DNA from: an uncultured Acidobacteriaceae bacterium
Lineage (GTDB): Bacteria > Acidobacteriota > Terriglobia > Terriglobales > Acidobacteriaceae
NCBI GenBank assembly: GCA_963810955.1
Contig: CAWEPW010000043.1
Location: 37,034-101,033 of the forward strand
Reading direction: 5' to 3'
DNA: 64,000 nucleotides
In this document: positions 1-30,781 of the stretch, piece by piece
Layout of the letters: the number at the start of each line of letters is the position of its first letter
Position numbering within the stretch: the first letter of the stretch is position 1
Notes under the pieces: model-generated
Seen by the model: the letters and a program-made list of their open reading frames with translations, nothing else
Told to the model about the DNA's origin: nothing
Databases searched by the model: none
Position numbers and translations under genes: made by a program

Positions 1-1537
1 CGAGCACAGGAATCTCTTTTGGCGCAAGCGCTCCCACGCGCAGAGCGCGCTTGGTCAGCACCACCCAAAGCAATCCCAACCCGTAAACCGCGCCTGCAAT
101 CAAAAGTTGCAGAGCCAGTTCCACGTAATGGTGCGGGATAAACCAGCTTTGCATCAGGAGAAGCGCGAACACCATCGGTATGCTGATGAGTATTGGCAGC
201 ACGTAGGCCTCGCGCAAGTAGGTGCTTACGCGAATCCCAAGTTGTTTGCACAAGTGCCCCGGCATAAAAAAGATCATGCTGACCGCCAGCGGAATGGCCG
301 TGCCGTAGGCGTCGCCCTCTATGGCTCGCTCCACCGATGTATGAATGAACAGGCGCACCAGAACGATGCTCAGAACCAGGTTGGCAATGCCTTCGGCGAG
401 CGTGACGAAGGCCCAAGTCTTGTGCTTGCTGATTCCGAAGAGCACTCGTCCAGAAGCCGCCTGCGCCCACATCAGTGTCGCTGGGATGATCAGGATCACG
501 AGCACCGGGTAGCTGGTGGCGATATATTTCTTCCCGACCCACACTTCAATAATCGACTTGCCCAGCACCAGCAAGGTCGCGGTAATGGGGAAACAGGTGA
601 AGGCGCACAAGCGGTTCCCGGCCACGAAAACTTTCCGCAGGCGGTCCATTTTCCCGGTCGCTTCCGACTCGCTGGCCAGGGGCAGAAAATTCTGCGCCAG
701 CGCCATCACCACCTGTTGCGTGTAATTCACGATGCGGGAGCCGATGGTGAAATACGTGATGGCGGCCGCCGAAATCATGCTGCCAATCACGATGTTGTCG
801 GTCTTGAACTTCAGTTGGGTCGCGATCATGATGATCAGCGTGACTCCGCTGTAGTTCGCCATCAGGTGGAAGGTTTCGCGGTCCACATATTTCATCCCAA
901 ACGGAACGGGACGAATGCGGAAAGCGATAACTCCCCGGACCAATGAATTAATAATAGGAAGAGCCACCGTAATGGCCGCCACGGTGAGCAACCCCTTGCC
1001 GTGGGTAAGAGCAGTTACGATCAGAACGACGCGAACGGCATTGCCCGCGACGCTCGTCCAGTTGTTAACGTAAAACATCTGCAGCCCATCCAGAAAACCG
1101 CCCACGACGCCGAGGGGGAAGCCGAGCGCAATTGCAACTCCGACCATCCACAGCAACAAGCGAGCGGTTGAATGGAAGCCCGGCGGAATCTTGAATAGGT
1201 TGTCGACGTAAATTCCGAGCACGGCCGTCACCATCAGACTCAGAACGCCGATGCAGCTATAGCTGAAGAAGCTGGTATTGATCAGCTTGGCCAGGTCTTC
1301 AATGTCGTCAACCGCGGTGAACTTCGAGACATAGCGGACTATCGAGGAACGGATTCCGAGATCGAACAGACCGTAGTATCCCGTGATCGTAAAAATCAAA
1401 ACCCAGATGCCGGATGCGGTATCGCCCAGTTTGTGCAGTATGAAGGGGTAGAGCAGGAAACCGACAACGACGTCGACGCCCAGGGAGAACCAACTGGAGC
1501 CGACGTTCTTCATGATTTGACGTTTGTTGATGCTCAT
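1..1537 (-). CDS. MOP/Wzx-type polysaccharide flippase; ATG at 1537, C-terminus runs past the window start (partial)
   Basis: Reverse-complement translation from the ATG at 1537 gives MSINKRQIMKNVGSSWFSLGVDVVVGFLLYPFILHKLGDTASGIWVLIFTITG..., a hydrophobic multi-TM protein with a Wzx-like N-terminus. The stop-free plus-strand shadow ORFs 107-946 and 516-725 are consistent with a long minus-strand ORF. The ORF track omits edge-truncated ORFs, so it is not listed. Confidence 0.55.
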   Translation of the reverse strand, partial: MSINKRQIMKNVGSSWFSLGVDVVVGFLLYPFILHKLGDTASGIWVLIFTITGYYGLFDLGIRSSIVRYVSKFTAVDDIEDLAKLINTSFFSYSCIGVLSLMVTAVLGIYVDNLFKIPPGFHSTARLLLWMVGVAIALGFPLGVVGGFLDGLQMFYVNNWTSVAGNAVRVVLIVTALTHGKGLLTVAAITVALPIINSLVRGVIAFRIRPVPFGMKYVDRETFHLMANYSGVTLIIMIATQLKFKTDNIVIGSMISAAAITYFTIGSRIVNYTQQVVMALAQNFLPLASESEATGKMDRLRKVFVAGNRLCAFTCFPITATLLVLGKSIIEVWVGKKYIATSYPVLVILIIPATLMWAQAASGRVLFGISKHKTWAFVTLAEGIANLVLSIVLVRLFIHTSVERAIEGDAYGTAIPLAVSMIFFMPGHLCKQLGIRVSTYLREAYVLPILISIPMVFALLLMQSWFIPHHYVELALQLLIAGAVYGLGLLWVVLTKRALRVGALAPKEIPVL

Positions 1538-2567: not shown

Positions 2568-2656
2568 CAATTTGTAATTTGTGATTGGTAATTGGTAATT
2601 GGAACCCTTCGGTTTTGATCTCAAATTACCAATTACAAATTGCCAATTACAAATTT
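2568..2656. repeat. Palindromic element made of AATTACCAATTACAAATT-type units; two ~32-nt inverted arms around a ~22-nt loop. It fills the gap between sulfotransferases A and B
   Basis: caatttgtaatttgtgattggtaattggtaattgg...tctcaaattaccaattacaaattgccaattacaaattt. The arms are near-perfect reverse complements. Confidence 0.85.
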
Positions 2657-3648: not shown

Positions 3649-4506
3649 CTACAAATCTTCCAGTCCCGAATGCACCCTCCTGGCCCCTACCAGGTTCGAC
3701 GTGGACAATTCGTAGCCCATCTCGCGCATCAGGCCGCCCCATGCCGATTCAATTTGGGCGAGGCTTGCCTCGGACAACTCCGCCTTCCAACCGCCCGATT
3801 TGGCGGCGCGGACGAACGGTTTATCTTTTCGCGTCTCGCGCGTCGAGGACCACAGGTGCGCCTGCTTTTTCTCCAGCTCGCGCATCCGATCGGCGGAGCT
3901 CTGCTCTATGGCAAAAGCCAGGCGTTCTGGCGTGGCTGAGATTCCCAGGAAGCTTGCGATTCTTTCCATCTCGTCCATGGCCTGCGACTGCAGCGACTCG
4001 TATTTCACCAACAGAAATCGAGGATCGCGGCGGCGGGTATAAAACCACGACGCGGCGTTTTCAAACCACGTTCCCGACTGATGGTTCACTTCGCCGCGAA
4101 CGAAGCGCCCGACAAATTCCGTCACCGGAAAATCGTCCGGAATAGCCCGCCGTTTGATGTCGAAGTGATATTCCGACAGCACAACGTCGCGCGGATCGCG
4201 AACGATGTAGATCACTTTCGGATAGCGAGGATCGAAATATTGGTGGCTCTTGAGCAGGCGCGGGCGCGCTGCGCGCTCCAGATCCTTCTTCGCCATCGCC
4301 TCTGGATCAGGGACTAAATCATTAATATTCGAAAAATCGGGATTCTTTTCGGGATAGACCAGATTGGCAATGAGAAACCGCGTCCAGGTGTTGCCGGACT
4401 TGGGATAAGAAACCAGAAAGACGTCATCGGGAAAAACGTGCAAATTGCGGCCGGGCGGATGCAGACCGAAAAAGTATTTCCCTCCCGCGATCAAACGCTT
4501 AATCAT
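3649..4506 (-). CDS. PAPS-dependent sulfotransferase, paralog C (start taken at MIKRLIAGG by analogy with paralog B; the track ORF starts at 4557)
   Basis: FPDDVFLVSYPKSGNTWTRFLIANL, YIVRDPRDVVLSEYH, FVRAAKSGGW. Third tandem paralog on the same strand. Confidence 0.8.
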   Translation of the reverse strand: MIKRLIAGGKYFFGLHPPGRNLHVFPDDVFLVSYPKSGNTWTRFLIANLVYPEKNPDFSNINDLVPDPEAMAKKDLERAARPRLLKSHQYFDPRYPKVIYIVRDPRDVVLSEYHFDIKRRAIPDDFPVTEFVGRFVRGEVNHQSGTWFENAASWFYTRRRDPRFLLVKYESLQSQAMDEMERIASFLGISATPERLAFAIEQSSADRMRELEKKQAHLWSSTRETRKDKPFVRAAKSGGWKAELSEASLAQIESAWGGLMREMGYELSTSNLVGARRVHSGLEDL

Positions 4507-4602
4507 TGATGGTACCCAACCCTGGATGTAACCCGACCCCGACGCGACTAAACCCAAATTCCAGATGCAGACTCATGCTTATCCGTTTTCGATCCCAGGC
4601 GA

Positions 4603-5589
4603 TCAAGCCGTAGCTCCGTGGCGCATCCAACTCCAGAAAGACATGAGACGGCTAGTCGCTCCGGGCGCGATGCCCAAGCCAACGACCGCAAGGCTCAACA
4701 CCGCGCTATGCAAAAAACCGTTCGCTTCCGCAATCAACTCGCGCGCCTTGTCAAACTGGCGTTCTTCCAGCTTGCATTTGCCCTCTTCCAGCAGATAGCG
4801 GGCCCGAATCTCAGCGGCACGCTTTTCAACCACCGCGCGATCGGCGCCTTCGAGCGGCAAAGTTCGCAGGAACTTATCCAGAATACACCAGTAGGCTTCG
4901 GCCATTCTGGCCCGCGACACGCTGAGCGAACCGGGGCGGCCGATGAAGAGACGAGCCTGAACCGCGCGCCCATAGCTGATTTTCGCCCCGCTGTAGGCAG
5001 CCCGCACCCACATATCGTAATCGTCGCAGCGCGCCAGTTTTTCATCGAACAAGCCCGCGTCCATCAGACTCTTTTTTCGCGCTACCACGGTTGAAATCGG
5101 AATCTGGCAATCTTCCACGATCAAGGCGGCAAACGTAGCCTGACCATGGGACGGGCACTTCTCCATGAACGGCCTCTCGGTCGCCGGGTCGCCGACGAGA
5201 AGCGCGTTGGCATAGACCAGATCGAGCGCTGGATCGTCCGCGATCAGCTTCATCTGCGCCGCGAGGTGGTTCGGATACCAGCTGTCATCGCTGTCGAGAA
5301 AGGCTACGAACTCTCCGCGAGCCTGCCGAATGGCGTTGTTGCGCGCAGCGGCGGCGCGCTTGTTCTCCTGCTTGATGTAAACCAGCCGTTTCTCGCCGCT
5401 GATGTAAGGCTGCAAAACCTTCTCCAGTTCGGGCGTATCCGGCGATCCGTCGTTGACGACGATCGCCTCGAAATCCGCGTAGGTCTGCGCGAAAACGGAG
5501 TCGAGGCAAGCCGCGATCAAATCGGCGGTCTTATAGCTCGGGATGATCACGCTGACCCTGGGCGCCGGATTGGTTTCGGCTGCTGGCAT
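4603..5589 (-). CDS. Family 2 glycosyltransferase (GT-A fold)
   Basis: VSVIIPSYKTADLIAACLDSVFAQTYADFEAIVVNDGSPDT and a DSDD motif. 328 aa, intact. Confidence 0.8.
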   Translation of the reverse strand: MPAAETNPAPRVSVIIPSYKTADLIAACLDSVFAQTYADFEAIVVNDGSPDTPELEKVLQPYISGEKRLVYIKQENKRAAAARNNAIRQARGEFVAFLDSDDSWYPNHLAAQMKLIADDPALDLVYANALLVGDPATERPFMEKCPSHGQATFAALIVEDCQIPISTVVARKKSLMDAGLFDEKLARCDDYDMWVRAAYSGAKISYGRAVQARLFIGRPGSLSVSRARMAEAYWCILDKFLRTLPLEGADRAVVEKRAAEIRARYLLEEGKCKLEERQFDKARELIAEANGFLHSAVLSLAVVGLGIAPGATSRLMSFWSWMRHGATA

Positions 5590-5712: not shown

Positions 5713-7077
5713 CTACGAACTGTGAAACACCAGTTCCTTTTCTCCGGCGATGATGTTATTCGCCGCTTCCACGCCCATCATCACCGAGTGATCCATATTT
5801 CCGATTTCATAGCGCCACGCGCCAAAACGTCCGCGAGAATAAATACCTTTTTCGAGCAACGCCGGTTGCAACACCTCGAGCGCGCGGTCGCGGCCGAGCG
5901 TCGGGATCGGATACGAGTAGCCGACCGTTCGGTGATAACGCGAGACAATGCGCCCACGGTCCGATTCCTCCAGCATATTAGTCCGGATCAGTTCGGTGGT
6001 TACCTGATCAAGAATTTTTTCCGGGTCGGGCGTTTCTCCTACCCGGAATGACATTTCGCACATCAGCGAACTGTAGTGCTCGATATCGCCGTTCGGCACG
6101 TTGTTCGGCGAGTAATGCGAAAAATAGGTGGCGCGATAGCACGGCATCTGCGGGTCGGTGAAGTAAATCCAGCAGCGTCCGGTCTCTATCTTCTTCTTAA
6201 TGCCAAGGCCAACCACCAGAAGATTGTTGTGTTCGAGGCCCTGGGCGGCATCGAGCAGCCGGTTGTCGGCCGGCTTGATCATCTTCGTGAGCAGATCGAG
6301 CGGCGCGGTCGAGATCAGCAGATCGTAATTGTCGCCGGTGCCGTCGGCGAACGAAACCCGGCGTTTCTCCAGATCGACCTCGGCCAGCTTTTTGCCGGTA
6401 ATTATCTTCTTCGGAAAGTAGGCGGCCATGCGCCGGTAGATCTCGCCGGTTCCGCCGTGCAGCGGGAACTTGAACTTGTTGTTCGGACCCCAGGCCACAT
6501 CGTCGCGCTCATAAAGAACGTTTTCGAGCAGCCGTTTGAAATCTATCGCCGCCACGCGCTCGGCGATCCAGGTCTTCGACATCTGTTCGAGCGGAGTGGT
6601 CCACACCTTGGAGTTATAGGGAAACATGAATTCTTCGGCGATGCCCTCGCCCATGGTGGCCAGAATCCAGTCGCGAAAGTTTCCCGCCTCGCGTCCGCCG
6701 CCGTTCGATGCGGCTTTGGCCGCGCCGATGAGGCAACTGACCTGAACCTCTTTAGGCAAGTAGCGCAGATTGCTCTGAAACGGGTATGGAACCCACGATT
6801 CGCCTCTTACGATCCAGCTCTCGCGAATGCGCTCGTGAACTTCTTTGCCAAGAGCCTTGTCGATCAGCCGGTCGAAATAGGGATAGTGCGAAAAGATGAC
6901 GTGGCCGCCCTCATCCCAGACAAATCCATTCTTATCTACATGGGAAGTGGCGTGCCCGCCGACATACTCGGATTTCTCATAAAGAACCCAGTTATCGTAG
7001 CCCAGTTCATGGAGACGGTAGGCCGCGCCCAGTCCGGTCGGTCCTGCTCCGATAATGACAATTTTCTTGCTCGCCAT
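5713..7077 (-). CDS. glf: UDP-galactopyranose mutase, eukaryotic-type (~450-500 aa class)
   Basis: IIGAGPTGLGAA Rossmann motif. GGHVIFSHYPYFD, WVPYPFQSNLRYLPKE, CYRATYFSHYSPNN and SRGRFGAWRYEIGNMDHS closely match the conserved blocks of fungal and kinetoplastid UGMs (recalled sequence, not a database search). Confidence 0.75.
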   Translation of the reverse strand: MASKKIVIIGAGPTGLGAAYRLHELGYDNWVLYEKSEYVGGHATSHVDKNGFVWDEGGHVIFSHYPYFDRLIDKALGKEVHERIRESWIVRGESWVPYPFQSNLRYLPKEVQVSCLIGAAKAASNGGGREAGNFRDWILATMGEGIAEEFMFPYNSKVWTTPLEQMSKTWIAERVAAIDFKRLLENVLYERDDVAWGPNNKFKFPLHGGTGEIYRRMAAYFPKKIITGKKLAEVDLEKRRVSFADGTGDNYDLLISTAPLDLLTKMIKPADNRLLDAAQGLEHNNLLVVGLGIKKKIETGRCWIYFTDPQMPCYRATYFSHYSPNNVPNGDIEHYSSLMCEMSFRVGETPDPEKILDQVTTELIRTNMLEESDRGRIVSRYHRTVGYSYPIPTLGRDRALEVLQPALLEKGIYSRGRFGAWRYEIGNMDHSVMMGVEAANNIIAGEKELVFHSS

Positions 7078-7113
7078 AAGATTGAATCGAGGGATGAGCT
7101 GGTCTTTGTCTTT

Positions 7114-7196
7114 GGATTCGGATTCGCTAACTCCGGATTGGCCGACTCTGGACTCGCCAACTCCGGATTCGCTAACTCCATGGATCGGCTGACTCC
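7114..7196. repeat. About 5 tandem copies of a 15-nt unit (GGAYTSGCYRACTCC) immediately upstream of the glf start (minus-strand gene)
   Basis: ggattcgctaactcc ggattggccgactct ggactcgccaactcc ggattcgctaactcc atggatcggctgactcc. Confidence 0.8.
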
Positions 7197-8114
7197 ATGC
7201 GGACCAGCATCTCCTAATCGGACATCGAATCGAACATCGGCATGACCGCTCTGAGTTTCCGAAGAAATCTTTGCAGGAGAACCAAATTGTAGCATAGGGT
7301 TTTTGCCCTTCCTGTGTGCCGAAAGTAACCGTGGATTAACGAAAATGCGCCGTCTGCCGCTGCATCTCAGCGCTTCCCGTCTTGCTGCGGCTTGGTGCTC
7401 CGCAAAGCACAGCCGCAGGCGGAAATCGTATCCCTTCAGCGGCTAGACAAACAACGAACGGAGGAAAAAGAGGAGGGAAAATAAAATCAGCCTTACTAGC
7501 GAAACCGGCATCTCTTAAGCGAACCGCTTATTTCGTGCGCCAACGGATTTCGGAGCCAACCTTGTCGGCGCAACCTTCGGCTCGCCGGTGCAAATAGTTA
7601 CTTATGATTACTTATTCCGAGGGCAGGTACTGCCGGCTGATCGGCCAACTGCTAGAATCACGTACTTAAGTGTTGCAGAATTTCATTGATTTTGGAGGCT
7701 TTTTCGTTGGGCCGATCAAGTCGAAGCGGTTCCACCATTAATTCCCAATCCGGGATGAATATCGCAACTTTTTTCACTTCGGTCGAGACTGTCCGCGACC
7801 GCAGGAACTAGTGAGTTGATCACACAATGATTTCATTATCTTACGATGAAAGATTCGTCGAATTTCGGAAGTCGAATTGCTCGCTAAATCACACGGAAGA
7901 CTTATTGACGTACGCCTGATTGACACAATGCCTGAAACATCTACTGCCTAGAGCTAGTTTACCCAATCGGACGTGACCAGTGCGTCCAGGGTGAGGAAGG
8001 AATTTTGGGATGAGGCCCAGCGATACCGATAACAAGCAGAAACACAAATTTGAAGTCGACATTGCCCTGAAATCGGAAGGGAATGCTGCCGCAAACACCG
8101 GGAGGAATAAGGAC

Positions 8115-9858
8115 TTGACCGCTTCAGGTAGCCATCTGATCGCCCCGCATGGGGGAGAACTGGTTCAGCTGCAAGTGCCGGCCGCGCGCGCCGCGGAGTT
8201 GAAGGCGCACTCGAAAGATTGGCCTTCGTGGGACCTGACCGCCCGGCAGCTTTGCGATCTGGAATTGTTGACCAGCGGCGGCTTTTCTCCGCTGCGCGGG
8301 TTTATGAATCGCGCCGATTACGAAGGCGTGTGCCACAACATGCGCCTGGCGAACGGCACACTTTGGCCGATGCCGATCACTCTCGACGTCAGTGAAGAAT
8401 TTGCCAAGAAACTGACCCCCGGTTCGAGCAAAATCGCGCTGCGCGATCCCGAAGGCGTGATGCTCGCCGTGCTCAACGTTGAAGACGTCTGGCAACCGGA
8501 CCGCAAGAGTGAAGCTCAATCCGTCTTTGGTTCCACCAGCGCCGCGCACCCGGGTGCGGACTACGCGATCAACAAGTCGCATCCGTGGTACGTGGGCGGA
8601 ACGATCGAAGAGTTGCAGGCTCCGTCGCACTACGATTTCCGCGCCCTGCGCCTGACTCCGGCCGACCTGCGTGCCGAGTTCCGCCGCCTGGGTTGGACCA
8701 CCGTCGTAGCCTTCCAGACGCGTAATCCCATGCATCGCGCCCACGTCGAGCTGACCATGCGCGCCGCCAAGCAAGTCGAGGCGAATCTGCTCATCCATCC
8801 TTCGGTCGGCATGACCAAGCCCGGCGACGTGGACTATTTCGTCCGCACCCGCTGCTACGAGCTGCTGCTGGCCAAGTATCCGCACGGCACAGTAAAGCTC
8901 TCGATGCTGCCGCTTGCCATGCGCATGGGCGGGCCGCGCGAAGCGCTGTGGCATGGCTTGATCCGCAAGAATCATGGCTGCACTCATTTCATCGTCGGCC
9001 GCGATCATGCCGGACCGGGCAAAGACACCGATGGCAGGAACTTCTACGGACCTTACGATGCCCAGGAACTATTCAAGAAACATCAGGAAGAAATGGGCGT
9101 CAAGATGGTTCCTTTCCAGATGATGGTTTATCTGCAGAATGAAGACCGTTATGTGCCTTCAGACGAAGTCCCACAGGGCGCGAAGGTCCTCGACATTTCA
9201 GGAACGGAATTGCGTCAACGCCTCAACGAGGGCCGTGATATTCCCGCTTGGTTTACCTATCCCGAAGTGGTGCAGGAATTGCGCCGCAGCTATCCGCCAC
9301 GCCACAAACAGGGCGTCACGATTTTCTTTACCGGTCTTTCGGGCTCGGGCAAGTCGACGATCGCCAACGCCCTGATCACGAAGTTCCTGGAGATGGGCGG
9401 ACGTCCCAGTCACTCTGCTCGACGGCGACCTGGTGCGCAAGAACCTGTCGTCGGAATTGGGCTTCTCGAAGGAGCATCGCGACATCAACATTCGCCGCAT
9501 CGGCTACGTCGCTTCCGAAATCACCAAGAACGGCGGCATCGCCATCTGCGCCCCCATCGCTCCTTACCAGGCGACGCGCAAGGCGGTGCGGCAGATGATT
9601 GAGCCTTTCGGCGGCTTCATCCTAGTGCACGCGGCTACGTCGATCGAAGTCTGCGAACAGCGCGATCGCAAGGGCCTCTACGCCAAGGCGCGAGCCGGCA
9701 TTGTCAAGGAATTCACCGGCATCTCCGATCCTTATGAGGCACCTGCCGATGCCGAAGTGGTCATCGATACTGCTAAGCTGACTCCCGAAGAAGCCGCCCA
9801 GACCATTATTTTGCACCTGGAGCGCGAGGGCTTTGTCGGGGCCAACGGCAACGGATAG
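8115..9858 (+). CDS. sat/cysC: Bifunctional sulfate adenylyltransferase (Sat-type ATP sulfurylase) with a C-terminal APS kinase domain (PAPS synthase). The reading frame is interrupted by a +1 indel near 9405-9410. The likely start is TTG at 8115, preceded by GGAGGA; the track ORF starts at 8010
   Basis: [24 protein letters not shown] and GRDHAGPG are ATP sulfurylase motifs. The C-terminal [22 protein letters not shown]-loop continues after the shift in frame 9433-9858 ([30 protein letters not shown]...). One extra nucleotide in cgtcccagtcact separates the two frames. Confidence 0.8.
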
Positions 9859-10144
9859 TTATCCATCCCGGTTCCCCAGTCCGCTGTTTCAACGACTTAT
9901 CGTTACTCCGGACTGGGAAGCCGGGGCTCGCTCCGGAAGGCTGCCAGCGAAGTCAATAAAGTCTATCGTTACAGTTGGCTTTATGGGATAATAACCCCGG
10001 AGAGCGGCTTCCCGTGCCGATTTTCAGTTTCTCGGTTCCTTAACATTGTTCTGCTAAACAGGATCTCGCGAAGCAGATTTTGCTAAGCAATGTTTCGCGT
10101 CACCGGGAATTGAGAAGCCGGAACTAAAGCTCTCGAAACACCGC

Positions 10145-10915
10145 ATGGAATTCTTGCTGCTAAAAGTACTGATCGGCTTCTGCGTCGGAACGCTGATCGG
10201 CTTAACGGGTCTGGGCGGCGGCGTATTGCTTTTGCCCATGCTCATCTTTGGCCTGCACATCCCCGCCATCATCGCCGTCGGCAGCGACGCGATGTTCAAC
10301 TTCTTCACCAAGATTCCCGCCAGCATCATGCACATCTGGCGGGGCACGGTGCGGAGAAAAGTCGTGCTCGCCATGGCCATCGGCAGCATGCCCGGCTCCT
10401 ATCTCGGCGTAACTTTTCTCGTGCACCTGCGCCACGTTTACGGCAACCACGTCAACGATTTCATCAAATCCGCGGTAGGGTTATTGCTCGTCTTAATTCC
10501 CACCCTGCTGATGTTTCAGGGCCGGATCGAGGACCATCTAGCCGGCCGCACGCCGACCATGAAGTCATTCGCCTTCATGAGCGTAATCGGACTTACCGGC
10601 GGATTCCTGGTGGGCATCACCTCGGTCGGCTCGGGCAGCATCATCATGATGTTGCTTCTTTTGTTTTATTCCTTCCCTCCCAAGATCATGGTCGGCACCG
10701 ACATTGCCCATGCCGTGCTTCTCACCGGCGTGACCAGTCTGTTGCACTGGCGGGCAGGCAACGTTGACGGGCATCTGGTCGGAGCATTGCTCATCGGGTC
10801 GATTCCCGGCGGAATGCTTGGCTCGTATCTGACTACGCGTGTCCCGGTACTGTGGCTGCGGCGAATCCTGTGCACCGTCTTGCTGATCACCGGAGCGCGC
10901 ATGTTGTGGGTGTAA
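10145..10915 (+). CDS. TauE/SafE (DUF81) family anion permease; a candidate sulfate or sulfite transporter by context
   Basis: 256 aa polytopic membrane protein with two halves each carrying GxGGG-like motifs (LTGLGGGVLLLP and ITSVGSGSIIMM). It sits between sat-cysC and cysQ. Confidence 0.7.
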   Translation: MEFLLLKVLIGFCVGTLIGLTGLGGGVLLLPMLIFGLHIPAIIAVGSDAMFNFFTKIPASIMHIWRGTVRRKVVLAMAIGSMPGSYLGVTFLVHLRHVYGNHVNDFIKSAVGLLLVLIPTLLMFQGRIEDHLAGRTPTMKSFAFMSVIGLTGGFLVGITSVGSGSIIMMLLLLFYSFPPKIMVGTDIAHAVLLTGVTSLLHWRAGNVDGHLVGALLIGSIPGGMLGSYLTTRVPVLWLRRILCTVLLITGARMLWV

Positions 10916-10920
10916 GAAAC

Positions 10921-10996
10921 ATTGAATCATTTTGACATTGAGTCATTAATGAATAATTCAATGCCTCAATGCCTCAATGATTCAATGACTCAATAG
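10921..10996. repeat. AT-rich tract of ~8-nt tandem repeats (CAATGMYT) in the 5' region of cysQ
   Basis: caatgcct caatgcct caatgatt caatgact caatagcc, preceded by ttgaatc attttgac attgagtc. Local GC is far below the genome background. Confidence 0.75.
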
Positions 10997-11016
10997 CCGG
11001 CACTTACTATTTCTTC

Positions 11017-11841
11017 TTGGAGAACATCTTAGTGACTTCATCCGCAGAAACTCTGGAACGTATTCATGCCGCACTGGAAGCGGCTCGGGTTGTGCTGAAG
11101 GGCTTTACCCCCGGAGCCATCGAGGCCAAATTTAAAGTTGGCGACGATCCGGTCACGGCCGCCGACCGCGCCGTCGACGACGTTCTGCGCAAGACGCTGC
11201 TTCGTTCCGGCGAGGGTTGGCTCTCGGAAGAAACCGTCGACGATTTCAGCCGTCTCGACAAACAACGTGTATGGGTCGTCGATCCGCTCGATGGCACGCG
11301 CGAGTTCGTGCAAGGCATTCCCGAATTCTGTGTTTCCATCGCCATGGTGGAGAATGGAATTCCCGTCGCCGGAGGCATCTGCAATCCGGCGACCGACGAA
11401 CTCATACTGGGCTCGCGCGAAACCGGCGTAACCTACAATGGGAAGCCCGCGCAACCGAGCCAGCGCAAGGATCTCCACGGCGCGCTCGTCCTGGCCAGCC
11501 GCAGCGAAGTGAAGCGAGGCGAGTGGAAGCAGTTCGAATCGGCCGAGTTCAACATTCGCCCCATGGGATCGGTCGCCTACAAGCTCGGACTGGTCGCCGC
11601 CGGCCGCGCCGATCTCACCTTCACCCTGGTTCCAAAAAATGAGTGGGACGTTGCCGCCGGCGCCGCGCTGGTCGAAAGCGCCGGAGGGTGGGTGCTGAAA
11701 CTCGACAATTCTCCCTTGCGCTGCAACCAGAAAAATCCGCTGATCTCCGGCCTCCTGGCCGGTAGCCCATTCCTGCGCGCTCCATTGCTCGCCATGCTCG
11801 ACCGCCACTCCCAGACCGTCGGAGCGGACAAGCAAGTCTGA
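11017..11841 (+). CDS. cysQ: 3'(2'),5'-bisphosphate nucleotidase CysQ (inositol monophosphatase family). Start may be the GTG at 11032, which has a GGAGA upstream
   Basis: WVVDPLDGTREF and WDVAAGAALV metal-binding motifs; 274 aa. Confidence 0.8.
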   Translation: MENILVTSSAETLERIHAALEAARVVLKGFTPGAIEAKFKVGDDPVTAADRAVDDVLRKTLLRSGEGWLSEETVDDFSRLDKQRVWVVDPLDGTREFVQGIPEFCVSIAMVENGIPVAGGICNPATDELILGSRETGVTYNGKPAQPSQRKDLHGALVLASRSEVKRGEWKQFESAEFNIRPMGSVAYKLGLVAAGRADLTFTLVPKNEWDVAAGAALVESAGGWVLKLDNSPLRCNQKNPLISGLLAGSPFLRAPLLAMLDRHSQTVGADKQV

Positions 11842-12166
11842 CGCACTTACCAGCGCGTACGCACAATCTTGTCGCCACCGAACCGGACTGACGCCGGCGA
11901 ACAAAAAGCGCAATCGCTCGCTTCGCGTCACATTTTGCAAGCCAACCATTGGCCCCAGGATTCCCGATTTCGTCCCCCTATCGGCCGAAAACCCCCGTCC
12001 CACGGCTGTTTTCAGCTTATCTTTAGAAACCAGCGGACACTAGCCGCCGCGAATCGGTACATTAAGTTCCTGACCTGAGGATATCTAGGAAGCTTCCATT
12101 TACCCGGTTAGATTGAGCCTGAGGACAATCGACTGTCCCCCAATTCAGTAGGGTCGAGGGCTCATA

Positions 12167-14100
12167 ATGTTGCATGCAGAAAATGTACTTATAAGAAGCT
12201 ATTCTCCGTTTTCCGCTGCGCTCTTGCAGCGTCTTAGTCTTCTTACAATCCTGGCACTCACACTCACAACCATTCTCTCCGCCGAGACGCCGCATGGAAC
12301 TGCGATCCGTGGAACGGAGATACATGTAAGGGTAGGCGGAACGTCGGCGCAAGGTCCCGGCACAGACGGTGACAGTGGTTACGATGGCCCGGCGCAGCTG
12401 CCAATGGCCACCGTTGCCAGTTCCATGGCCGACACACCGGCGCCCGGCGCAATCATCAATGTCAATGCGGGCGGCGATCTCCAAACCGCCTTGAACACTG
12501 CCCAATGCGGCGACACGCTCGAACTGGAGGCCGGCGCAACTTTCACGGGATACTTCAGCTTTCCGGCTAAGGCATGCGATAACGAGCACTGGATCATTGT
12601 TCGAACGAGCGCGCTTGACACCGATCTTCCCGCCGAAGGTCAGCGCTTGACGCCTTGCTATGCGGGCGTGGCCTCACTGCCGGGGCGTCCACAATATACC
12701 TGCAACAACCCGCAGAATGTTCTCGCGAAGATCGTGAGTGCGGGGACTAGCGCGAGTCCGGTCACCTTCGCTTCCGGAGCGAATCACTATCGCCTCTTGG
12801 GCCTCGAAATCACGCGGCCGAGCGGAGTCGCGGGGTCGCCAGCGCTGGTCATAGTAATAAGAAAAGGCAACGCCGATCACATAGTTCTGGATCGCAGCTG
12901 GTTGCACGGGACAGCGGACGATGAAACCAGGTCTGGTATCTCTGTCGTCGGTGCGAGTTACGTGGCGGTCGTGGATTCGACCTTCACAAACTTTCAATGC
13001 ACCTCCAAGACCGGCACGTGCACGGATTCCCACGCAGTGGTTGGAGGCAATGGGGATCATCCAGGATGGTCCCTTCTTGATCCAAGACAACTTCCTGGAA
13101 GCTGCAGGAGAAGAAATTCTATTCGGCGGCGGCGCGGCCACCACGACTCCCTCCGACATCACCATCAGCTCCAATCACTTCTTCAAGCCATGGCAGTGGA
13201 TGCCCGGAAGCAAGCCCTTCCAGGGTGGAAAGGGCGGCCATCCATTCATTGTCAAGAACCACCTGGAACTGAAGAATGCTACACGGGTGCTGGCAGAAGC
13301 CAACCTGATGGAAGACGTCTGGGGAGGTTTCAGCCAGCAAGGCTTCGCAATCGTCCTCACTCCGAGCAACCAGCCTAGTCAAACAAAACCCATCGTCGAC
13401 ATGTGCCCGACCTGCGAGGTCACCGACGTGACCATCCGTTATACCCACATCATGCATGCGGGAGGGGGGATCGTTATGGCGACCCCCATTTCCGGACATG
13501 GCAAGAATGAAGGCGGAGCAGCCGCCAAGGAAGGAGCTCGCTGGAGCGTTCACGACGTGGTCTTCGATGACATCAGCCAGGGTTACACCGGCGAGGGTAG
13601 GTTGTTTTACCTGGCGAACGGCTGGCCGACGAACCCGGTGAACACCGTCACGATCAATCACATTACCGGATTCTCCGATGTAAAAGGCGGCTTTATGCTC
13701 ACGGGAAATAACCCGCCCAATCAGGAGATGTACGGCTTAGTCTTCACTAACAATATTGTCACCACCGGAGTTCACCCGATGTGGTCTGCAGAGGGTGGCG
13801 ATACCAGTTGTGCGAAATCAGATGTCCCGGTCACCGTTCTGAGCAACTGCTTCAAGACATTCACCTTCAACTATAACGCCCTCCTGGGGACGACTTCCAG
13901 TTTTGGACCAGGAACCTGGCCGGATCGGCAATATGTTCGGTCCGAGCCCCGGCGTTACCGCGTTTGCCGCATATAAGAACGGCAACGGTGGAAACTATCA
14001 GCTTCCCGCGAACAGCCCCTATAAGAATGCCGGGAGCGACGGCAAGGATCTGGGGGCCGACATCGTCGGACTCACCAAGGCTTTGGCCGGAGTCGAGTAA
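12167..14100 (+). CDS. Secreted right-handed parallel beta-helix protein (putative polysaccharide lyase or depolymerase), paralog 1. Spread over three frames (12167-13378, 12921-13976, 13903-14100), so either two frameshifts or a pseudogene
   Basis: Colinear with the intact paralog 17210-19069 (CGDTLELEAGATF, LPGRPQYT, TGTCTDS..GGNGD, ILFGGGA, FKPWQWMPG, WGGFSQQGF, CEVTDVTIRYT, C-terminal DLGADIVGL..LAGVE). Frame changes fall near 13050 and 13900. Confidence 0.6.
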
Positions 14101-14134
14101 GTTCTAGTTCGAAAGTGTTTATTTTGGAGAATGC

Positions 14135-14162
14135 TAGCGCCAAGGTCTGCGGTTCGCCGCGG
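14135..14162. terminator. GC-rich hairpin (12-bp stem, ttcg loop) between convergent genes; candidate bidirectional terminator with no clear U-tract
   Basis: caaggtctgcgg ttcg ccgcggaccttg. Confidence 0.35.
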
Positions 14163-14173
14163 ACCTTGTTCTG

Positions 14174-15363
14174 CTAGCCAGCCGGAGGACGCGTTCCCAG
14201 CTGATCAAGTTCTATCCGTGACGGAATGGCGCGCCCATGTCGCAGCGCCTGGTAGACCCACGCAAACAATGCTGAATTGATCATGCAAAAATAGTAAGGG
14301 AGCCGCAGAACTTTGGGCTTGAGGCTAGCCATAGCGCCCAGTACAGCGAGCCCATAGAAGAGCACTTGCCCGAGCAACAACCAGTCGTAAGGGAATTGTC
14401 CGCGCAAAGCGATATTCGCTCCAAGCGCGATGAGCATAAAGATGGGCACCAGCAGCCGCCCGGTTTTGTGAGAGAGCAAACAGAAGAGGACAAACGGCCG
14501 CGGCGGCCAGATCAGCCCTTTGATCTCCCGCAATTGTTCGATGTTGCCGGCCGTGATTCGCACGCGGCGGGAGAATCCCTCCATTTCATGAGCCTCTTCA
14601 TAGGCCACGGCTGCCGGTTCGTAGGCCACGCGATGTCCCTGTTCAACAATGCGCATCGGAATCGTGAAGTCGTCGTTGATGGTGTTGAGCGGCGGAAATG
14701 GATAAAGCGCGCGACGAATGGCATAAAGAGATCCGTGCGCGCCAGTAAATGCGCCGAGCTTGGCCTCTTGCACTTTCAGGAAAGTTTCATATTTCCAGTA
14801 GAGATCTTCTTGCGACCCAAGGTGGGCCTGATCTTTCTTCAGGAGCCGGTAAACTCCGCTGGCCGCGCCCACCCGCGCATCGTTGAAACTCTGCACCAGC
14901 ACGCGGAGAGAGTCGGCGGCCAACATGCTGGAAGCGTCGGAGAACGCTACGATGTCTCCGCGCAATTCGGGCACGGCATCGTTAAGAACCGCCATCTTTC
15001 CGCGATTCTTCTCATAATTGAGCAGGCGAATTCGTCCGTCGCTTCCGGTGTCGCTTCGTTTTCGCTTTTATAAAATGACCGCACAATTTCAGCCGTGGCA
15101 TCCTTCGACCCATCCGATGCGACCACGATTTCCAGCTTGTCGGCCGGGTAGTCAAGCGCAAGACTGTTGCGGATTTTGTCCGCGATAACAGCGGCTTCGT
15201 TGTAGGCGGCCACCAGCAGCGAAACGGACGGCTCAATCGGCTCCCGGCGCGGCGCGGCGCGAACCACACCCTGCAGCAGCCACAGCAGAATCGGATAACC
15301 GGCGTAGACGTAGACCGTAACCCCCGCCGAAATCCAGAACAGAAGCCTGGTCGTCATTAGCAA
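14174..15363 (-). CDS. Membrane-embedded family 2 glycosyltransferase (synthase-like, with TM segments at both ends). Split into two frames by an indel near 15040-15075
   Basis: N-terminal part (14947-15363): TM helix then LLVAAYNEAAVIADKI...LEIVVASDGSKDATAEIV. C-terminal part (14174-14995): NYEKNRGKMAVLNDAV..DIVAFSDASS..QEDLYWKYE..TGAHGSLYAIRR followed by several TM helices. Confidence 0.65.
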
Positions 15364-15370
15364 TACTGCC

Positions 15371-16056
15371 TTAGATGGCCGTAGACCGGATGCAATGCAG
15401 TTGCCCGAGAATCTCGTGCGAATCGATGCGGAATCCGGCGCGCTTCAAATAGTCTTCCGCCTGCGCCTGCGTGAAGAAATAGACCGGGCAGCCGTCCGCC
15501 TTGAGGCGCACCTTGCGAATCGATGCGCGCAGAGTCGCGGCGCGCGGCCATGCCGACAAGAAACGTCTTCTTCGTAATTCCGCGGATCACCTGCAATCTC
15601 GGCAACGGGTCGGCCACGTAATCCCAGAATCCGATCGCAATCACCTGATCGAACTTCTGGTCCGTCTTCCAGTCGAGCACATCGCTGAGCACGAACTTGC
15701 AGCGATCCGCGACACCCTTCTTTTTCCACCAGTTGCTGACTCAACCTCAGCATCTCCGGAGCAAAGTCCAGGCCGGTAACCTGCGCGCCGCGTTTGGCCA
15801 GCGTCGCGACAAAGCGTCCCGAACCGCAGCCGACGTCGCAGATCGTCATGCCGTTCAAGTCAGGGGACGGGCCTGATTCGCGCATGACCCACTCGTAGCG
15901 CTGGTAAATGTCTTTTCTCAGCCATTTATCCAGGCCGCGGCCGATCGGGCCCTTGTTGCCTGTATAGATCGCGTCGAAATCGTTGGCGATGTCGTTCCAG
16001 TATTTCGCTATCTGCTCAGATTCGTCAGTTTTTGTTTTCGTGGCTGTTCCATTCAT
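15371..16056 (-). CDS. Class I SAM-dependent methyltransferase, spread across three frames (two frame changes near 15712 and 15545)
   Basis: ICDVGCGSGRFVATLAKRGAQVTGLDFAPEMLRLSQQLVEKEG in frame 1. ..FVLSDVLDWKTDQKFDQVIAIGFWDYVADPLPRLQVIRGITKKTFL in frame 2. CPVYFFTQAQAEDYLKRAGFRIDSHEILGQ in frame 3. Confidence 0.65.
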
Positions 16057-16918: not shown

Positions 16919-17060
16919 TCCCCGATGGATCGTCCGCGAAAGGATTTCTCTCTTAGTATCGCCCAGCCAGCGGACATTTGGAACGTAATTTTGCCGCTCG
17001 CCGCAAGAGCACAGTTACAAAAGTAAGCCCATCGAAATGTGCTTAAAGCAAGGCTTTTCC

Positions 17061-17089
17061 GCAATTCGCCTTCCTTCGTGGTCCTTAGT
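17061..17089. repeat. Three tandem copies of a 9-10-nt unit (TCCTTMGTGG) in the 5' region of beta-helix paralog 2
   Basis: tccttcgtgg tccttagtgg ccttagtgg. Confidence 0.75.
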
Positions 17090-17209
17090 GGCCTTAGTGG
17101 TGATGCTTTCGCGGACCGCTCCACAACCGCATGTTACTATCTGCTATCGCAGCTGCTGAGAATATCCTTCATTCCACCCACGGGACGTGCCGTTAGGAGA
17201 ACCAACACC

Positions 17210-19069: not shown

Positions 19070-19099
19070 TTGCCCGTGGTGGAATAATGCCCGTGTGGG

Positions 19100-19140
19100 G
19101 GCGGGGCTCTGCCCCGCCAAGACGGGGCGAAGCCCCCGTC
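19100..19140. terminator. Two adjacent GC-rich hairpins (ggcgggg..ccccgcc and gacgggg..ccccgtc) just after the paralog 2 stop; candidate terminator
   Basis: Read directly. They overlap the first ~45 nt of track ORF 19095-20288, which argues for a later start of that gene. Confidence 0.35.
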
Positions 19141-19241
19141 ACCACGCAATCCCAGGCCAAGACGATGCAGTAACTTCAGTAACCCTGTATTCACAGGGCT
19201 TTCAAACGGCTCCGATCATCCTGCATGTTAAGATTTTTCAG

Positions 19242-20288
19242 GTGTCCAGCCCCATCTCCAGCGATCGCAAATACTCGCCAGTCTTCGTGATGGGCTGCCA
19301 CCGTTCGGGAACCAACCTGCTCTACGACATGCTGCTCTCCGCTGGCGGTTTTGCCATCTACCGTGGCATTCTGCCGGTCTATGAAACTCTGATTCCTTGC
19401 TTCGGCTCGCTGCAGAGTCGCGCGCATCGCGAAAAGCTCGTCGAGACCTGGTTCCTCAGCAAAGGCTTCCGGCGCACCGGTCTCGCTGCTGAGCACTTGT
19501 CGGCGCGAATCGTCAACGAATGCCGCACCGGCGGCGACTTCATTCGCATTGTCATGGATTCCGTAGCTGAGAGCCAACACGCGCAGCGCTGGGCCGCATA
19601 CGATCCCGACAACGTGATACACGTTGAGCAAATCAAGCGCGAGATACCCAACGCTTTGTTTCTCCACATCATCCGCGACGGACGCGACATAGCTCTCTCG
19701 CTGAAAAAAATGGGCGGCTTCGCTCCCCTGCCCTGGGACCGCACTCAGACCGAGAGCCTGGTGGCGACAGCGCTTTATTGGCAGTGGATGGTGCAGTGCG
19801 GCCGCTCGGGCGGCAGCAAGTTCCCCTCCGACTATATCGAGGTCCGCTACGAAGACCTGGTCTCCAACCCGCGCCAGACGCTCGGCAGGGTGGGCGCTTT
19901 CATCGATCACGATCTGGAATATGACCGCATTCAAAACGCCGGCCTCGGCCGTGTGTCGGACACGAACTCTTCATTTCGAGAAGAAAGCGCCCAGCACGAG
20001 ATCAACCCGCTGGGGCGCTGGCGAGAGCGCCTCTCGCATACTGAGATCGCGGCTATCGAAGCCAATGTCGGGGACTGCCTGCAGGAAAATGGCTATGAGC
20101 TTTCGCTTCCTGCTGAAGAACGCCGCCTCGGCTTGCGCCTGTCGTCGATGCGTGCCATCTATCCTGCCTATCTCAACGGCAAGTCATGGCTCAAGGCACG
20201 CACGCCGCTCGGCCGTTTTGTCAGGACATCGGTTCTCAAACTCGAAGAGGAAGAACCCTTGCAACCAGCCGAGCCGGTTCTAAAGTAA
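19242..20288 (+). CDS. Sulfotransferase of the Stf0 / Sulfotransfer_3-like family, the fourth sulfotransferase in the locus. Start likely the GTG at 19242
   Basis: YSPVFVMGCHRSGTNLLYDML (PAPS 5'-phosphate-binding loop) and LFLHIIRDGRDIALS (3'-PB-like). Confidence 0.65.
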   Translation: MSSPISSDRKYSPVFVMGCHRSGTNLLYDMLLSAGGFAIYRGILPVYETLIPCFGSLQSRAHREKLVETWFLSKGFRRTGLAAEHLSARIVNECRTGGDFIRIVMDSVAESQHAQRWAAYDPDNVIHVEQIKREIPNALFLHIIRDGRDIALSLKKMGGFAPLPWDRTQTESLVATALYWQWMVQCGRSGGSKFPSDYIEVRYEDLVSNPRQTLGRVGAFIDHDLEYDRIQNAGLGRVSDTNSSFREESAQHEINPLGRWRERLSHTEIAAIEANVGDCLQENGYELSLPAEERRLGLRLSSMRAIYPAYLNGKSWLKARTPLGRFVRTSVLKLEEEEPLQPAEPVLK

Positions 20289-27480: not shown

Positions 27481-29585
27481 CTAGATTCTTTTGAATGCCT
27501 TCTGAATATCCTGCATGGAGTAGCGCAGCACGACTGGCCTGCCATGTGGGCAGGTCATGGGATGGTCGGTCTTGGACAGTTCGGAGAGCAGCCATTCCAT
27601 TTTGTTTTGTTCCAGTGGCATGTTGACCTTGATAGCGGCGTGGCAGGCTATGGAGGCGGCAATTCGAGTGCGCACGGCTTCGAGATTGATGGCTTGCTCT
27701 TCGCGAGTCAACTGTTCGAGGATTTCGTTGAGCAGGTGCTCGATTTGCGCGGCGTCTACGCCGGCAGGGGCGAGTTTGACCGCAACGCTGCGGGCTCCGA
27801 AGGGTTCGGCCTCAAAACCGTTGTGGGACAGTTCTTCGGCAATTTGCTGAAGAATAGCTTGCTGCGCAGGCGTCAGTTCGATGATGAGCGGCATCAGCAG
27901 GCGTTGGCTTTCCACCTGCTGGCCTGCGCGCTGGCGCACGATGCGTTCGAAGAGCACGCGCTCGTGAGCGACGTGCTGATCGATGATCCAGAGGCCATCT
28001 TCGTTGACGGCCAAAATAAACGAGTTTCGAATCTGGCCTAACGGTCGCAGCGTGCGACAGCGATTCGAGGGTCGGCGAGTTTGCGGTTCCTGCGCGATGG
28101 GCGGAGCACAGCCATGATCGGGAACCGGTTCTGGATTCATCGTCAGTGGCGCAACTGCGCTTCTGGCACTCCCGCAAGCGACAGGGCGGCGTTTCCTCGA
28201 CTGCGATTCCGGCGGCAAACTCAAAACGCGCCGTGACTGCGGGAATAGCCGGCGCTTGCAGTCGCGAATCCCCGGCCGCCGCCGGTTCATACAAGTCGCG
28301 CCATGGGCTGCGACGGTGCAGTGCATCGGTCTGCTGCCGCCATCGGCGAAGCGGGAGTTACCTGTGCCGGGGCTGCTAAGCCCGGGAGTCGCCGAAGGCT
28401 GCGCTTTGATTTCCTTCAGGAATTGCGGCACCGGCCGCGCTTTCATCAACGCCGCCCGCACCGACTCGCGCACGAAATCATGAATCACCGTCTGCTGGCG
28501 GAACCGCACTTCAGTCTTTGAAGGATGCACATTCACATCCACCTCGGCGGTGGGCATTTCGATAAAAAGCAGAACGACTGGAAAGACCGTCGGCGGCAGA
28601 ATATTGCGATAGGCCTCGACGATGGCATGTTGCATAAGCCGATCGCGAATCAGCCGTCCATTGACGAAAATGAAAATCGAATTGCGATTGAGCTTCTGAA
28701 TTTCCGGCTTGGAAACAAAACCGTGCAGCCGCAATTCACCGAAATCTGGGGCGCCGACACTGTCCGCGAGTCCGCTGCTGTCTCATCTGGAGGTGCTGCT
28801 TCCCCTGCCTTAGAGGGGGCTTCGCGGACAAGAGTGTTCGCGCCACCCGTTTCGCTGCGCCGCCACGGCGGGGGCTGCGGAAGCCCAACCCGCTCCAGCG
28901 GCTGCACCGCCGCCAGCGGAATCAACTGGTCGAGCGTCTCGCCTCCGAATACCTGGTAGACACGTTCGCGATGGCCGGCCACGGGCGGCGCCACCAGCAA
29001 TGCATTCGTGGCCGAGTGCAACTCAAAATGCTTTTCAGGATGCGCCAGCGCGTAGTGCGTTACAAGCGATGCGATATGCGATAGTTCAGTCGACTCCGAA
29101 CGCAGAAATTTTTTGCGCGCCGGCGTATTAAAGAAGAGATCGCGAATCGTGATCGCAGTTCCCAGTGGCAGGCCTGCCTCTTCGACGCGGATGATTTTGC
29201 CGCCGTTGATCTCGAGAACCGTTCCCGCCGCTTCTTCGTCGGCACGCGTTTCCAGATGCAGGCGCGCAACCGAAGCAATGGACGGCAGCGCCTCGCCGCG
29301 AAAACCCAGGGTCGCAATGCTCAGCAGGTCGTCGGTATCTTTGATCTTGGAAGTCGCGTGGCGCTCAAATGCGAGCATGGCATCGTCGCGCACCATGCCG
29401 CAGCCGTTGTCGGTGATCTGGATCAGCTTCTTCCCTCCCGCCTCAACCTGTATGCGAATGCGCGTGGAACCAGCGTCCAGCGCGTTCTCGAGCAACTCCT
29501 TCACCACCGACGCGGGACGTTCGACCACTTCGCCGGCGGCGATCTGGTTGGCGACTCTTTCGGGAAGAACGTGAATTTTGCCCAT
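27481..29585 (-). CDS. mutL: DNA mismatch repair protein MutL, split into an N-terminal ATPase ORF (28650-29585) and a middle-plus-C-terminal ORF (27481-28734) that overlap in different frames
   Basis: N-terminus: HVLPERVANQIAAGEVVERPASVVKELLENALDAGSTRIRI..ITDNGCGM (GHKL ATPase). C-terminal ORF: LHGFVSKPEIQKLNRNSIFIFVNGRLIRDR...TDHPMTCPHGRPV. The junction region (28740-28900) is unusually long and frame-shifted. Confidence 0.8.
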
Positions 29586-30594: not shown

Positions 30595-30781
30595 GTCGCG
30601 GAAGTTATCAATCGTGCCGCGAGGGACTGCCTACCATCATCGCTTCTCGGCTGGAGGTGATGATAAGCTTTCTGTTCGGACTTTCACGTGCGAGGCGAGC
30701 TTAGCATTTTCGAAGAGCGAAATTCCGCGCTTGCCGCCAGGACGACAGATGGAGCCCGACCACGATCCCGATCCCAGTACA

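Follow-up and report, generated by a model that had tools for sequence, protein, structure and literature searches.

The 64,000-nucleotide stretch analyzed here (the window), from contig CAWEPW010000043.1 of an uncultured Acidobacteriaceae bacterium, carries three consecutive forward-strand genes: a fused ATP sulfurylase/adenosine 5'-phosphosulfate (APS) kinase gene, sat-cysC, followed by genes for a TauE/SafE-family permease and an inositol-monophosphatase-family protein. We think it likely that they form a working sulfate-activation operon of a Terriglobales bacterium, supplying 3'-phosphoadenosine 5'-phosphosulfate (PAPS) to four sulfotransferases that decorate a Wzx-exported glycan, that the one extra base interrupting the fusion gene is an error, and that sat-cysC encodes a 580-amino acid protein starting at TTG 8115. 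In the proposed sequence of events, the permease would import sulfate, the Sat domain would convert ATP and sulfate to APS, and the C-terminal CysC domain would phosphorylate APS to PAPS, the last two steps being suggested by homology and motifs. The sulfotransferases would then consume PAPS and release 3'-phosphoadenosine 5'-phosphate (PAP), which the inositol-monophosphatase-family protein would cleave to AMP and phosphate, as conserved gene linkage suggests. The gene set is an ordinary one, widely conserved among soil Acidobacteria, and the fusion family already has a curated model and solved structures. Only the split of the kinase looks unusual, and that split most likely comes from an error in the sequence.

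As sequenced, sat-cysC occupies two open reading frames (ORFs), 8010..9602 (+) and, in the next frame, 9433..9858 (+). The former holds the PUA_2 and ATP-sulfurylase domains together with the kinase P-loop GLSGSGKST, and the latter holds the remainder of the APS kinase domain. Once one base at 9405-9408 is dropped, a single gene at 8115..9858 (+) encodes a protein with the Pfam domain order PUA_2 (PF14306, residues 9-168, approximately 8139-8618 in the DNA), ATP-sulfurylase (PF01747, residues 177-391, approximately 8643-9287) and APS_kinase (PF01583, residues 399-551, approximately 9309-9769). The domain search also recovered the TauE and Inositol_P families in the two genes downstream. Compared with NF004040 (bifunctional sulfate adenylyltransferase/adenylylsulfate kinase), the repaired protein aligns from end to end, residues 8-574 with profile positions 5-570 of 572, and scores 937.4 bits, well over the cutoff of 669 (E 2.6e-282); as sequenced, the uninterrupted frame of an NF004040-type fusion is lost to a +1 shift at 9405-9408. 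Among solved structures, it matches 1I2D (with 1M8P) at 690 bits and 2GKS, from Aquifex aeolicus, at 600 bits. The catalytic motifs of both domains (QTRNP/HRAH, GRDHAG, the P-loop GxxxxGKST and DGD) are present and align with those of 2GKS; the sulfurylase domain keeps VGRDHAG and the kinase domain has GLSGSGKST and LLDGD. Since the Aquifex-like kinase motifs are intact, we expect the repaired protein to be a genuine PAPS synthase; both steps to PAPS are predicted from the strong homology and the intact catalytic motifs. An earlier note on this DNA had proposed these gene identities, with an N-terminal Sat and a C-terminal APS kinase, and had likened the fusion to Aquifex or fungal enzymes. 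The Pfam, NF004040 and PDB matches confirm the former, and the layout agrees with the latter, Aquifex being the more accurate of the two comparisons on account of the kinase motifs.

The same note had placed the true start at TTG 8115, within the longer ORF, and comparison with relatives backs that choice. A GGAGGA lies ahead of this TTG, at 8101-8106. Most of the Terriglobia relatives shown have a TTG seven codons ahead of the conserved HLIAPHGG, with GGAGG before it; one (L027) has GTG instead, and some spacings differ. In several relatives, in-frame stops lie immediately upstream of the corresponding TTG. Because the TTG and GGAGG are kept in relatives, with stops upstream in several of them, we place the sat-cysC start at TTG 8115. 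The 35-codon extension from ATG 8010 shows no conservation in relatives.

Three-frame translation locates the break. The kinase domain is pushed into the +1 frame by one extra base at 9405..9408 (+), within CGTCCCAGTC, after which frame 0 turns to nonsense and the next frame carries on; dropping one base in CGTCCCAGTC (9402-9411) rejoins the two ORFs. A one-nucleotide (1-nt) insertion was placed here by blastn against each of three relatives (L001, L003 and L004). The position of the single extra nucleotide, given in the earlier note as near 9405-9410, is therefore borne out. That note expected cccgtcact, with A as the extra base; the extra base stands, but A is not a unique solution. Relatives read GGRPVT(L/I/M)LDGD in one frame, with the codons CGT CCG/CCA/CCC GTC, so that the extra base could equally be C (CCA to CCCA).

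Relatives were gathered from two sources. A scan of species-representative genomes gave 80 loci, the nearest of which belong to metagenome-assembled genomes (MAGs) of Terriglobales and Acidobacteriaceae from peat and soil, with up to 95% protein and approximately 85% DNA identity, none of them from the same species. A metagenome scan with the phosphatase protein gave 80 more loci, 58 of them complete at the break site; the best of these has 93% protein and 86% DNA identity, and no same-species contig is among them. Look-ups for records identical to the TauE or phosphatase protein came back empty, and a scan of metagenome contigs by exact pattern found neither shifted nor in-frame alleles of the same strain. 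At the break site the reading frame is intact in all 138 complete relatives (80/80 genome loci and 58/58 metagenome loci). Moreover, the pairwise ratio of nonsynonymous to synonymous substitution rates (dN/dS) against eight relatives is 0.03-0.05 both before and after the break, which points to equally strong purifying selection on either side, although such pairwise values average over a long divergence and rule out only an old pseudogene. One related MFD-series MAG (L067, 10001-11732) has a frame break of its own in sat-cysC, at a different site near residue 105; the present assembly is therefore not the only one in which this gene is broken.

At least 12 further frame breaks were found in the window, for a total of at least 13, or roughly one per 5 kb. 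They fall within 12167-16185, 27481-29585, 30614-32689, 35251-39111, 47446-51154 and 55718-58418. Against intact orthologues in three relatives (L002, L003 and L022), blastx placed two frame changes in the gene at 12167-14100, at approximately 13058 and 13925. A glycosyltransferase gene (GT2, 14177-15455) and a methyltransferase gene (15374-16185) each show two frame changes against L003, and blastn placed 1-nt insertions at 15564 and 15719. Every break that could be pinned to a base (approximately 13058 and 13925, 15564 and 15719) is a 1-nt insertion. Other breaks show up as Pfam domains of one gene shared out over ORFs that overlap. For mutL, residue 1 of ORF 27481..28734 already corresponds to position 23 of the DNA_mis_repair profile, and it is ORF 28650..29585, overlapping the former, that encodes the ATPase domain. 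For metH, ORF 36614..37984 matches positions 1-38 of the B12-binding_2 profile and ORF 35251..36867 matches positions 38-73. Two breaks spread a DyP peroxidase over three ORFs, and tamB and an FG-GAP/ASPIC gene are each split, at 50117-50190 and 56598-56800, respectively. Further break sites lie at approximately 15058 and 15370 and within 28650-28900, 30993-31733 and 36614-36867. At least 13 breaks in 64 kb, some of them in housekeeping genes, fit an error-prone assembly far better than a free-living bacterium, and at one break per approximately 5 kb, apparent pseudogenes in the window should be treated as assembly errors. Gene splits and apparent pseudogenes annotated here, including those in Sat/CysC, mutL and metH and the DyP-encapsulin "fusion", should not be taken as biology. 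This last is the ORF at 31313-32689, in which the C-terminal part of the DyP peroxidase (profile positions 40-165 of 166) is followed by a complete encapsulin shell domain, Linocin_M18; here frame errors have probably joined the gene of a DyP cargo to that of an encapsulin, producing what only looks like a fusion.

The module is embedded in a glycan cluster of approximately 21 kb that includes four sulfotransferases, glycosyltransferases, a deacetylase and a Wzx flippase. The Wzx-type polysaccharide flippase, at 1..1520 (-), runs off the start of the window as a 519-amino acid open frame with multiple hydrophobic segments. Its assignment comes from a relative, L001, in which an upstream-neighbor ORF (8045-9610) with approximately 65% nucleotide identity to window positions 364-1519 matches Polysacc_synt (PF01943). 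Three tandem Sulfotransfer_1 genes, the presumed consumers of PAPS, follow at 1689-2687, 2647-3519 and 3649-4557 (all -), each a near full-length match to PF00685 with E values of 1e-38 to 1e-44. A fourth sulfotransferase, of the Sulfotransfer_3 family (PF13469, 91.3 bits), lies at the far end of the cluster, at 19095..20288 (+). Simple regular expressions for the PAPS-binding loops of sulfotransferases gave zero matches, so the calls rest on the full-length Pfam matches. Between the tandem sulfotransferases and sat-cysC, and divergent from the latter, are a GT2 glycosyltransferase (4603-5589, -, PF00535) and a flavin adenine dinucleotide (FAD) amine-oxidase-like oxidoreductase (5713-7077, -, PF01593). 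Beyond the phosphatase gene are a conserved protein without functional assignment at 12167-14100 (+), known from its orthologues in L002, L003 and L022, then the GT2 and methyltransferase genes mentioned above (both -, identified by Pfam and blastx) and a polysaccharide deacetylase (16025-16918, -, Pfam). The entire arrangement is common to the window and L003.

The surroundings of sat-cysC elsewhere point in the same direction. When the 136 nearest-neighbor ORFs of the fusion in 55 related loci were scanned with Pfam, sulfotransferases topped the list: Sulfotransfer_3 was found nine times, Glycos_transf_2 and ACPS (phosphopantetheinyl transferase) seven times each, Sulfotransfer_1 and Polysacc_deac_1 six times each, and Polysacc_synt (Wzx) five times. 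The sulfotransferase-rich neighborhood, both here and in the 55 loci, supports the use of PAPS for sulfation. PAPS reductase and sulfite reductase families are not among the 25 neighbor families listed for these loci. In agreement with the earlier note, which had reported no cysH/cysIJ, no domain of those types was found in the scanned window ORFs of at least 150 amino acids, taken as the likely genes, which represent 64 kb of the genome. That note had gone on to call the module dedicated to sulfotransferases and not to assimilation. The link to sulfotransferases is upheld in the window and in the 55 loci, but the exclusion of assimilation draws on those 64 kb only.

The third gene of the module, at 11032..11841 (+), encodes an inositol-monophosphatase-family phosphatase that we regard as a likely PAP phosphatase of a CysQ-like kind, and as no more than a putative member of CysQ proper. 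It matches Inositol_P (PF00459) at 168.7 bits, and the metal-binding motifs VVDPLDGT and NEWDVAAG are visible. The top NCBIfam model is CysQ TIGR01331, at 131.9 bits against a cutoff of 228.8, followed by HisN at 118.6; the other CysQ model, NF008182, gives 97.6 against a cutoff of 379. The names given to two 90%-identical orthologues disagree between sources, both being CysQ at NCBI and inositol monophosphatase at JGI. A stronger argument than the scores is the conserved linkage to PAPS synthesis genes, which is why we favor a PAP phosphatase function. In 39 of the 68 loci with enough flank, a phosphatase homologue lies downstream of sat-cysC on the same strand and within 4 kb, the two genes overlapping or standing up to approximately 1.2 kb apart, with only a few bases or an overlap between them in many loci. 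These 39 loci span Terriglobia, Thermoanaerobaculia, Vicinamibacteria, Acidimicrobiia and Pirellulales. The "CysQ PAP phosphatase" of the earlier note thus keeps its family, its linkage and CysQ as the best model, but scores under both CysQ cutoffs and owes its proposed function to context. Although the listed ORF begins at TTG 11017, GTG 11032 is the likelier start because orthologues, 120 of them, begin MTSS/MSSS..ETLERIH; GTG 11032 has GGAGAA at 11019-11024.

Between the two enzymes, at 10145..10915 (+), is a 256-amino acid permease of the TauE/SafE (TSUP, DUF81) family. Its match to PF01925 is full length (153.3 bits against a gathering threshold of 32.6, profile positions 2-237 of 237), as the earlier note's identification of a DUF81/TauE permease would lead one to expect, and no NCBIfam model matched it. 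In 26 of the same 68 loci, nearly all of them in Terriglobia-type MAGs, the permease gene sits between sat-cysC and the phosphatase gene, so that all three genes are syntenic; the phosphatase linkage alone extends across several phyla. CysZ (Cg3112) of Corynebacterium glutamicum, whose gene belongs to a sulfate-activation operon, is required for growth when sulfate is below 5 mM (PMC1266029) and has been placed in the TSUP family (PMC5840216). Given the gene context and the CysZ precedent, sulfate import is the most economical reading of the permease, and we suggest that it is a sulfate importer. Sulfite export, suggested by the family name, fits the context less well.

The main alternative concerns where the PAPS goes. 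The module might activate sulfate for the organism in general and serve assimilatory sulfate reduction too, or chiefly that, by way of a PAPS reductase whose gene lies elsewhere; it would then not be a private supply for sulfation. In favor of this, E. coli is the model case of assimilation by way of PAPS with CysQ, a window of 64 kb shows little of the genome, and in most related loci that combine sat-cysC with the TauE and phosphatase genes, sulfotransferases are missing from the flanks examined (10 kb where the contig allowed). We nevertheless consider this general route rather unlikely, as no cysH-, cysI- or cysJ-type domain occurs in the scanned ORFs of the window, and in the 55 loci it is sulfotransferase and polysaccharide genes that are commonest around the fusion, reductase families being absent from the 25 families listed. 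With no sulfotransferase in the flanks examined in most related loci, and with 64 kb being a small part of a genome, a second, assimilatory role beside the sulfation that we favor is still conceivable. Some of the evidence gathered here does weigh against a dedicated sulfation module as we have drawn it. The phosphatase falls below the cutoffs of both TIGR01331 and NF008182, and its closest solved relatives are inositol monophosphatases/SuhB (93-101 bits; 5ZHH, 2QFL), ahead of CysQ (3B8B at 82 bits and 5DJF at 68). TSUP substrates cannot be read from sequence, and the characterized members include sulfite and sulfonate exporters. In addition, a literature search gave no sulfated glycan or polysaccharide, or PAPS use, for Acidobacteria or Sulfotelmatobacter. 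The treatment of the extra base as an error has its own weak points: the closest relative has only 86% DNA identity, so the error is something that we infer and do not observe, and the pinned breaks are all 1-nt insertions, not all of them in homopolymers, which leaves the error process without an explanation.

Were the extra base real, the APS kinase would have been recently inactivated by a genuine frameshift, leaving the P-loop in one polypeptide and the remainder of the domain in a 141-amino acid fragment. The base is, after all, present in the sequence as given, and mutL seems to be broken too; a real mutL defect would raise frameshift rates. Yet the break is absent from every relative examined (0/138), dN/dS is not raised past it, the PAPS-dependent sulfotransferases are intact, and at least 13 breaks in 64 kb, including those in metH, mutL and tamB, are many more than one would expect a free-living bacterium to withstand. 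We therefore hold a genuine inactivation to be improbable, and equally improbable its corollary that the module yields APS and no PAPS unless a second cysC exists elsewhere in the genome. A broken mutL might also have made the strain a real hypermutator, but with breaks so dense in housekeeping genes we judge this very unlikely. A frameshift in the DNA could also be bypassed during translation, by a programmed or spontaneous +1 slippage of tRNA-Pro at CCC-A that yields the full-length enzyme. CCC-N is a known slippery context for tRNA-Pro and the shift needed is indeed +1, but the shift site occurs in none of the 138 relatives, stimulators are lacking (CCC is followed in the zero frame by the sense codon AGT, and the nearest GGAG is approximately 14 nt upstream) and similar breaks occur at unrelated sequences across the window; we give slippage hardly any credence. 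A programmed +1 frameshift of the prfB type was rejected, as the site is conserved in 0/138 relatives and both the stop and the close Shine-Dalgarno are missing. Because all 138 relatives are in frame, dN/dS is low after the break and at least 12 more breaks are found in the window, we judge that the frame break at 9405-9408 is most likely a sequence or assembly error.

The spacer upstream of TauE contains a conserved element. An imperfect palindrome, AAAGTCTAT-N-TTGGCTTT, followed by TGGGATAAT, which resembles an extended -10 box, lies at 9955..9992 (+). The palindrome is present in 30 of 93 TauE upstream regions (that of the window and 29 of those of 92 relatives), with the consensus AAAGYCNAT-N7-9-ATNGRCTTT and a TGnGATAAT box directly after it. 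Palindrome and box usually stand 80-120 nt ahead of the TauE ATG, compared with 153 nt in the window, and the arms of the palindrome co-vary, GTC/GAC being replaced by GCC/GGC. We suggest 9955-9992 as a candidate operator and promoter for the TauE and phosphatase genes, in which case the "operon" may in this clade be two transcription units. The leader that follows the box, up to 10144, contains a UUCUCAGU...ACUGAGAA hairpin and GAGAACU repeats. RNAalifold found no consensus structure in a crude alignment of 30 TauE leaders, so the hairpin is an observation on single sequences. Rfam gave no match at gathering thresholds over the whole window, nor at E values of up to 1 over 7000-12200, and a scan for promoter and terminator consensus sequences gave no more sites than were found in shuffled sequences.

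Other spacers of the module have repeats of their own. Just past the sat-cysC stop, at 9875-9917, is a 9-bp hairpin, CCCAGTCCG ... CGGACTGGG, with a 25-nt loop and no T-run after it; relatives have a hairpin at the same place with another repeat sequence (TTCTCAG / CTGAGAA). A short tandem repeat, TCAATGAC x4.6, occupies 10958-10994 between the TauE and phosphatase genes, and a 15-nt tandem unit is repeated 4.1 times at 7119-7179, in the 1-kb spacer between the FAD oxidoreductase gene and sat-cysC. Within the glycan cluster, the proteins encoded at 12167-14100 and 17039-19069 are large paralogues (approximately 640 and 676 amino acids) without a Pfam match; both are kept beside the sulfation module in L002, L003, L004, L008, L022 and L027, and may be part of the glycan machinery. 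Elsewhere in the window, at 33583-35195, a molybdopterin oxidoreductase gene (Oxidored_molyb) stands beside a cytochrome b561 gene. This MsrPQ-like pair could be mistaken for a sulfite oxidase and has no link to the sulfation module.

Taken further, and only tentatively, these data suggest that Terriglobales of peat and soil make a surface polysaccharide that is multiply sulfated and exported by way of Wzx. The four sulfotransferases would draw on a private module for import, PAPS synthesis and PAP removal, with a TSUP sulfate importer, and a novel palindromic operator and structured leader (9955-10144) would set the expression of the permease and phosphatase; we find this fuller picture possible, at somewhat less than an even chance. 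To our knowledge, sulfated bacterial polysaccharides are rare. If such a sulfated exopolysaccharide exists, it would bear on cation and water binding and on organic sulfur retention by these bacteria in acidic soils. The locus adds, from Acidobacteria that are abundant in soil and peat, a well-conserved case of sulfotransferase genes clustered with a PAPS supply of their own, and it provides comparative support both for a TSUP permease as a sulfate importer and for an unclassified clade of inositol monophosphatases as PAP phosphatases.

Each part of the module can be set beside a known system. The bifunctional SAT/APS kinase of A. aeolicus (2GKS; NF004040/PRK05537) has the same order of PUA-like, ATP sulfurylase and C-terminal APS kinase domains; the two proteins align over residues 38-574, and both have a P-loop of the form GxxxxGKST (TGLPCAGKST in Aquifex) and LLDGD. 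Unlike the Aquifex gene, the copy in the window is broken by one extra base as sequenced and shares its operon with genes for a TSUP permease and a phosphatase, and its protein has Ala for Ser in the (I/V)SPY motif (APIAPY versus ALVSPY). The ATP sulfurylase of Penicillium chrysogenum (1I2D, 1M8P) is the best solved match, over residues 10-574, and shares the two-domain layout. In the fungal enzyme, however, the C-terminal domain has a degenerate P-loop, TGYMNSGKDA, and LLLGD, whereas the window protein keeps the catalytic motifs; that fungal domain is an allosteric PAPS-binding site and no kinase.

The phosphatase resembles CysQ and Rv2131c of Mycobacterium tuberculosis (3B8B, 5DJF) in its inositol-monophosphatase fold family, in DPLDGT and WDxAAG, and in its link to PAPS synthesis, but matches them at only 82 and 68 bits, compared with 93-101 to inositol monophosphatases. 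Like the permease, CysZ of C. glutamicum is a TSUP membrane protein in a sulfate-activation operon, and its deletion abolishes growth at low sulfate. That operon, cysIXHDNYZ, is in contrast assimilatory, and TSUP clades are diverse; the likeness drawn here is one of family and context. For the module as a whole, there is an analogy with BT_0411-BT_0416 of Bacteroides thetaiotaomicron, which comprise PAPS synthesis genes, a putative sulfate importer and a cholesterol sulfotransferase (PMC9417993). There, too, an importer and PAPS-making enzymes are encoded beside a PAPS-using sulfotransferase, but the product is a sulfated sterol and no glycan. Bacteroides uses CysDN and a separate CysC, with a transporter from another family. 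Other private PAPS supplies beside sulfotransferases are those of NodPQ/NodH in rhizobia and of the mycobacterial sulfolipid system, and a private PAPS supply next to sulfotransferases is an arrangement that is already known.

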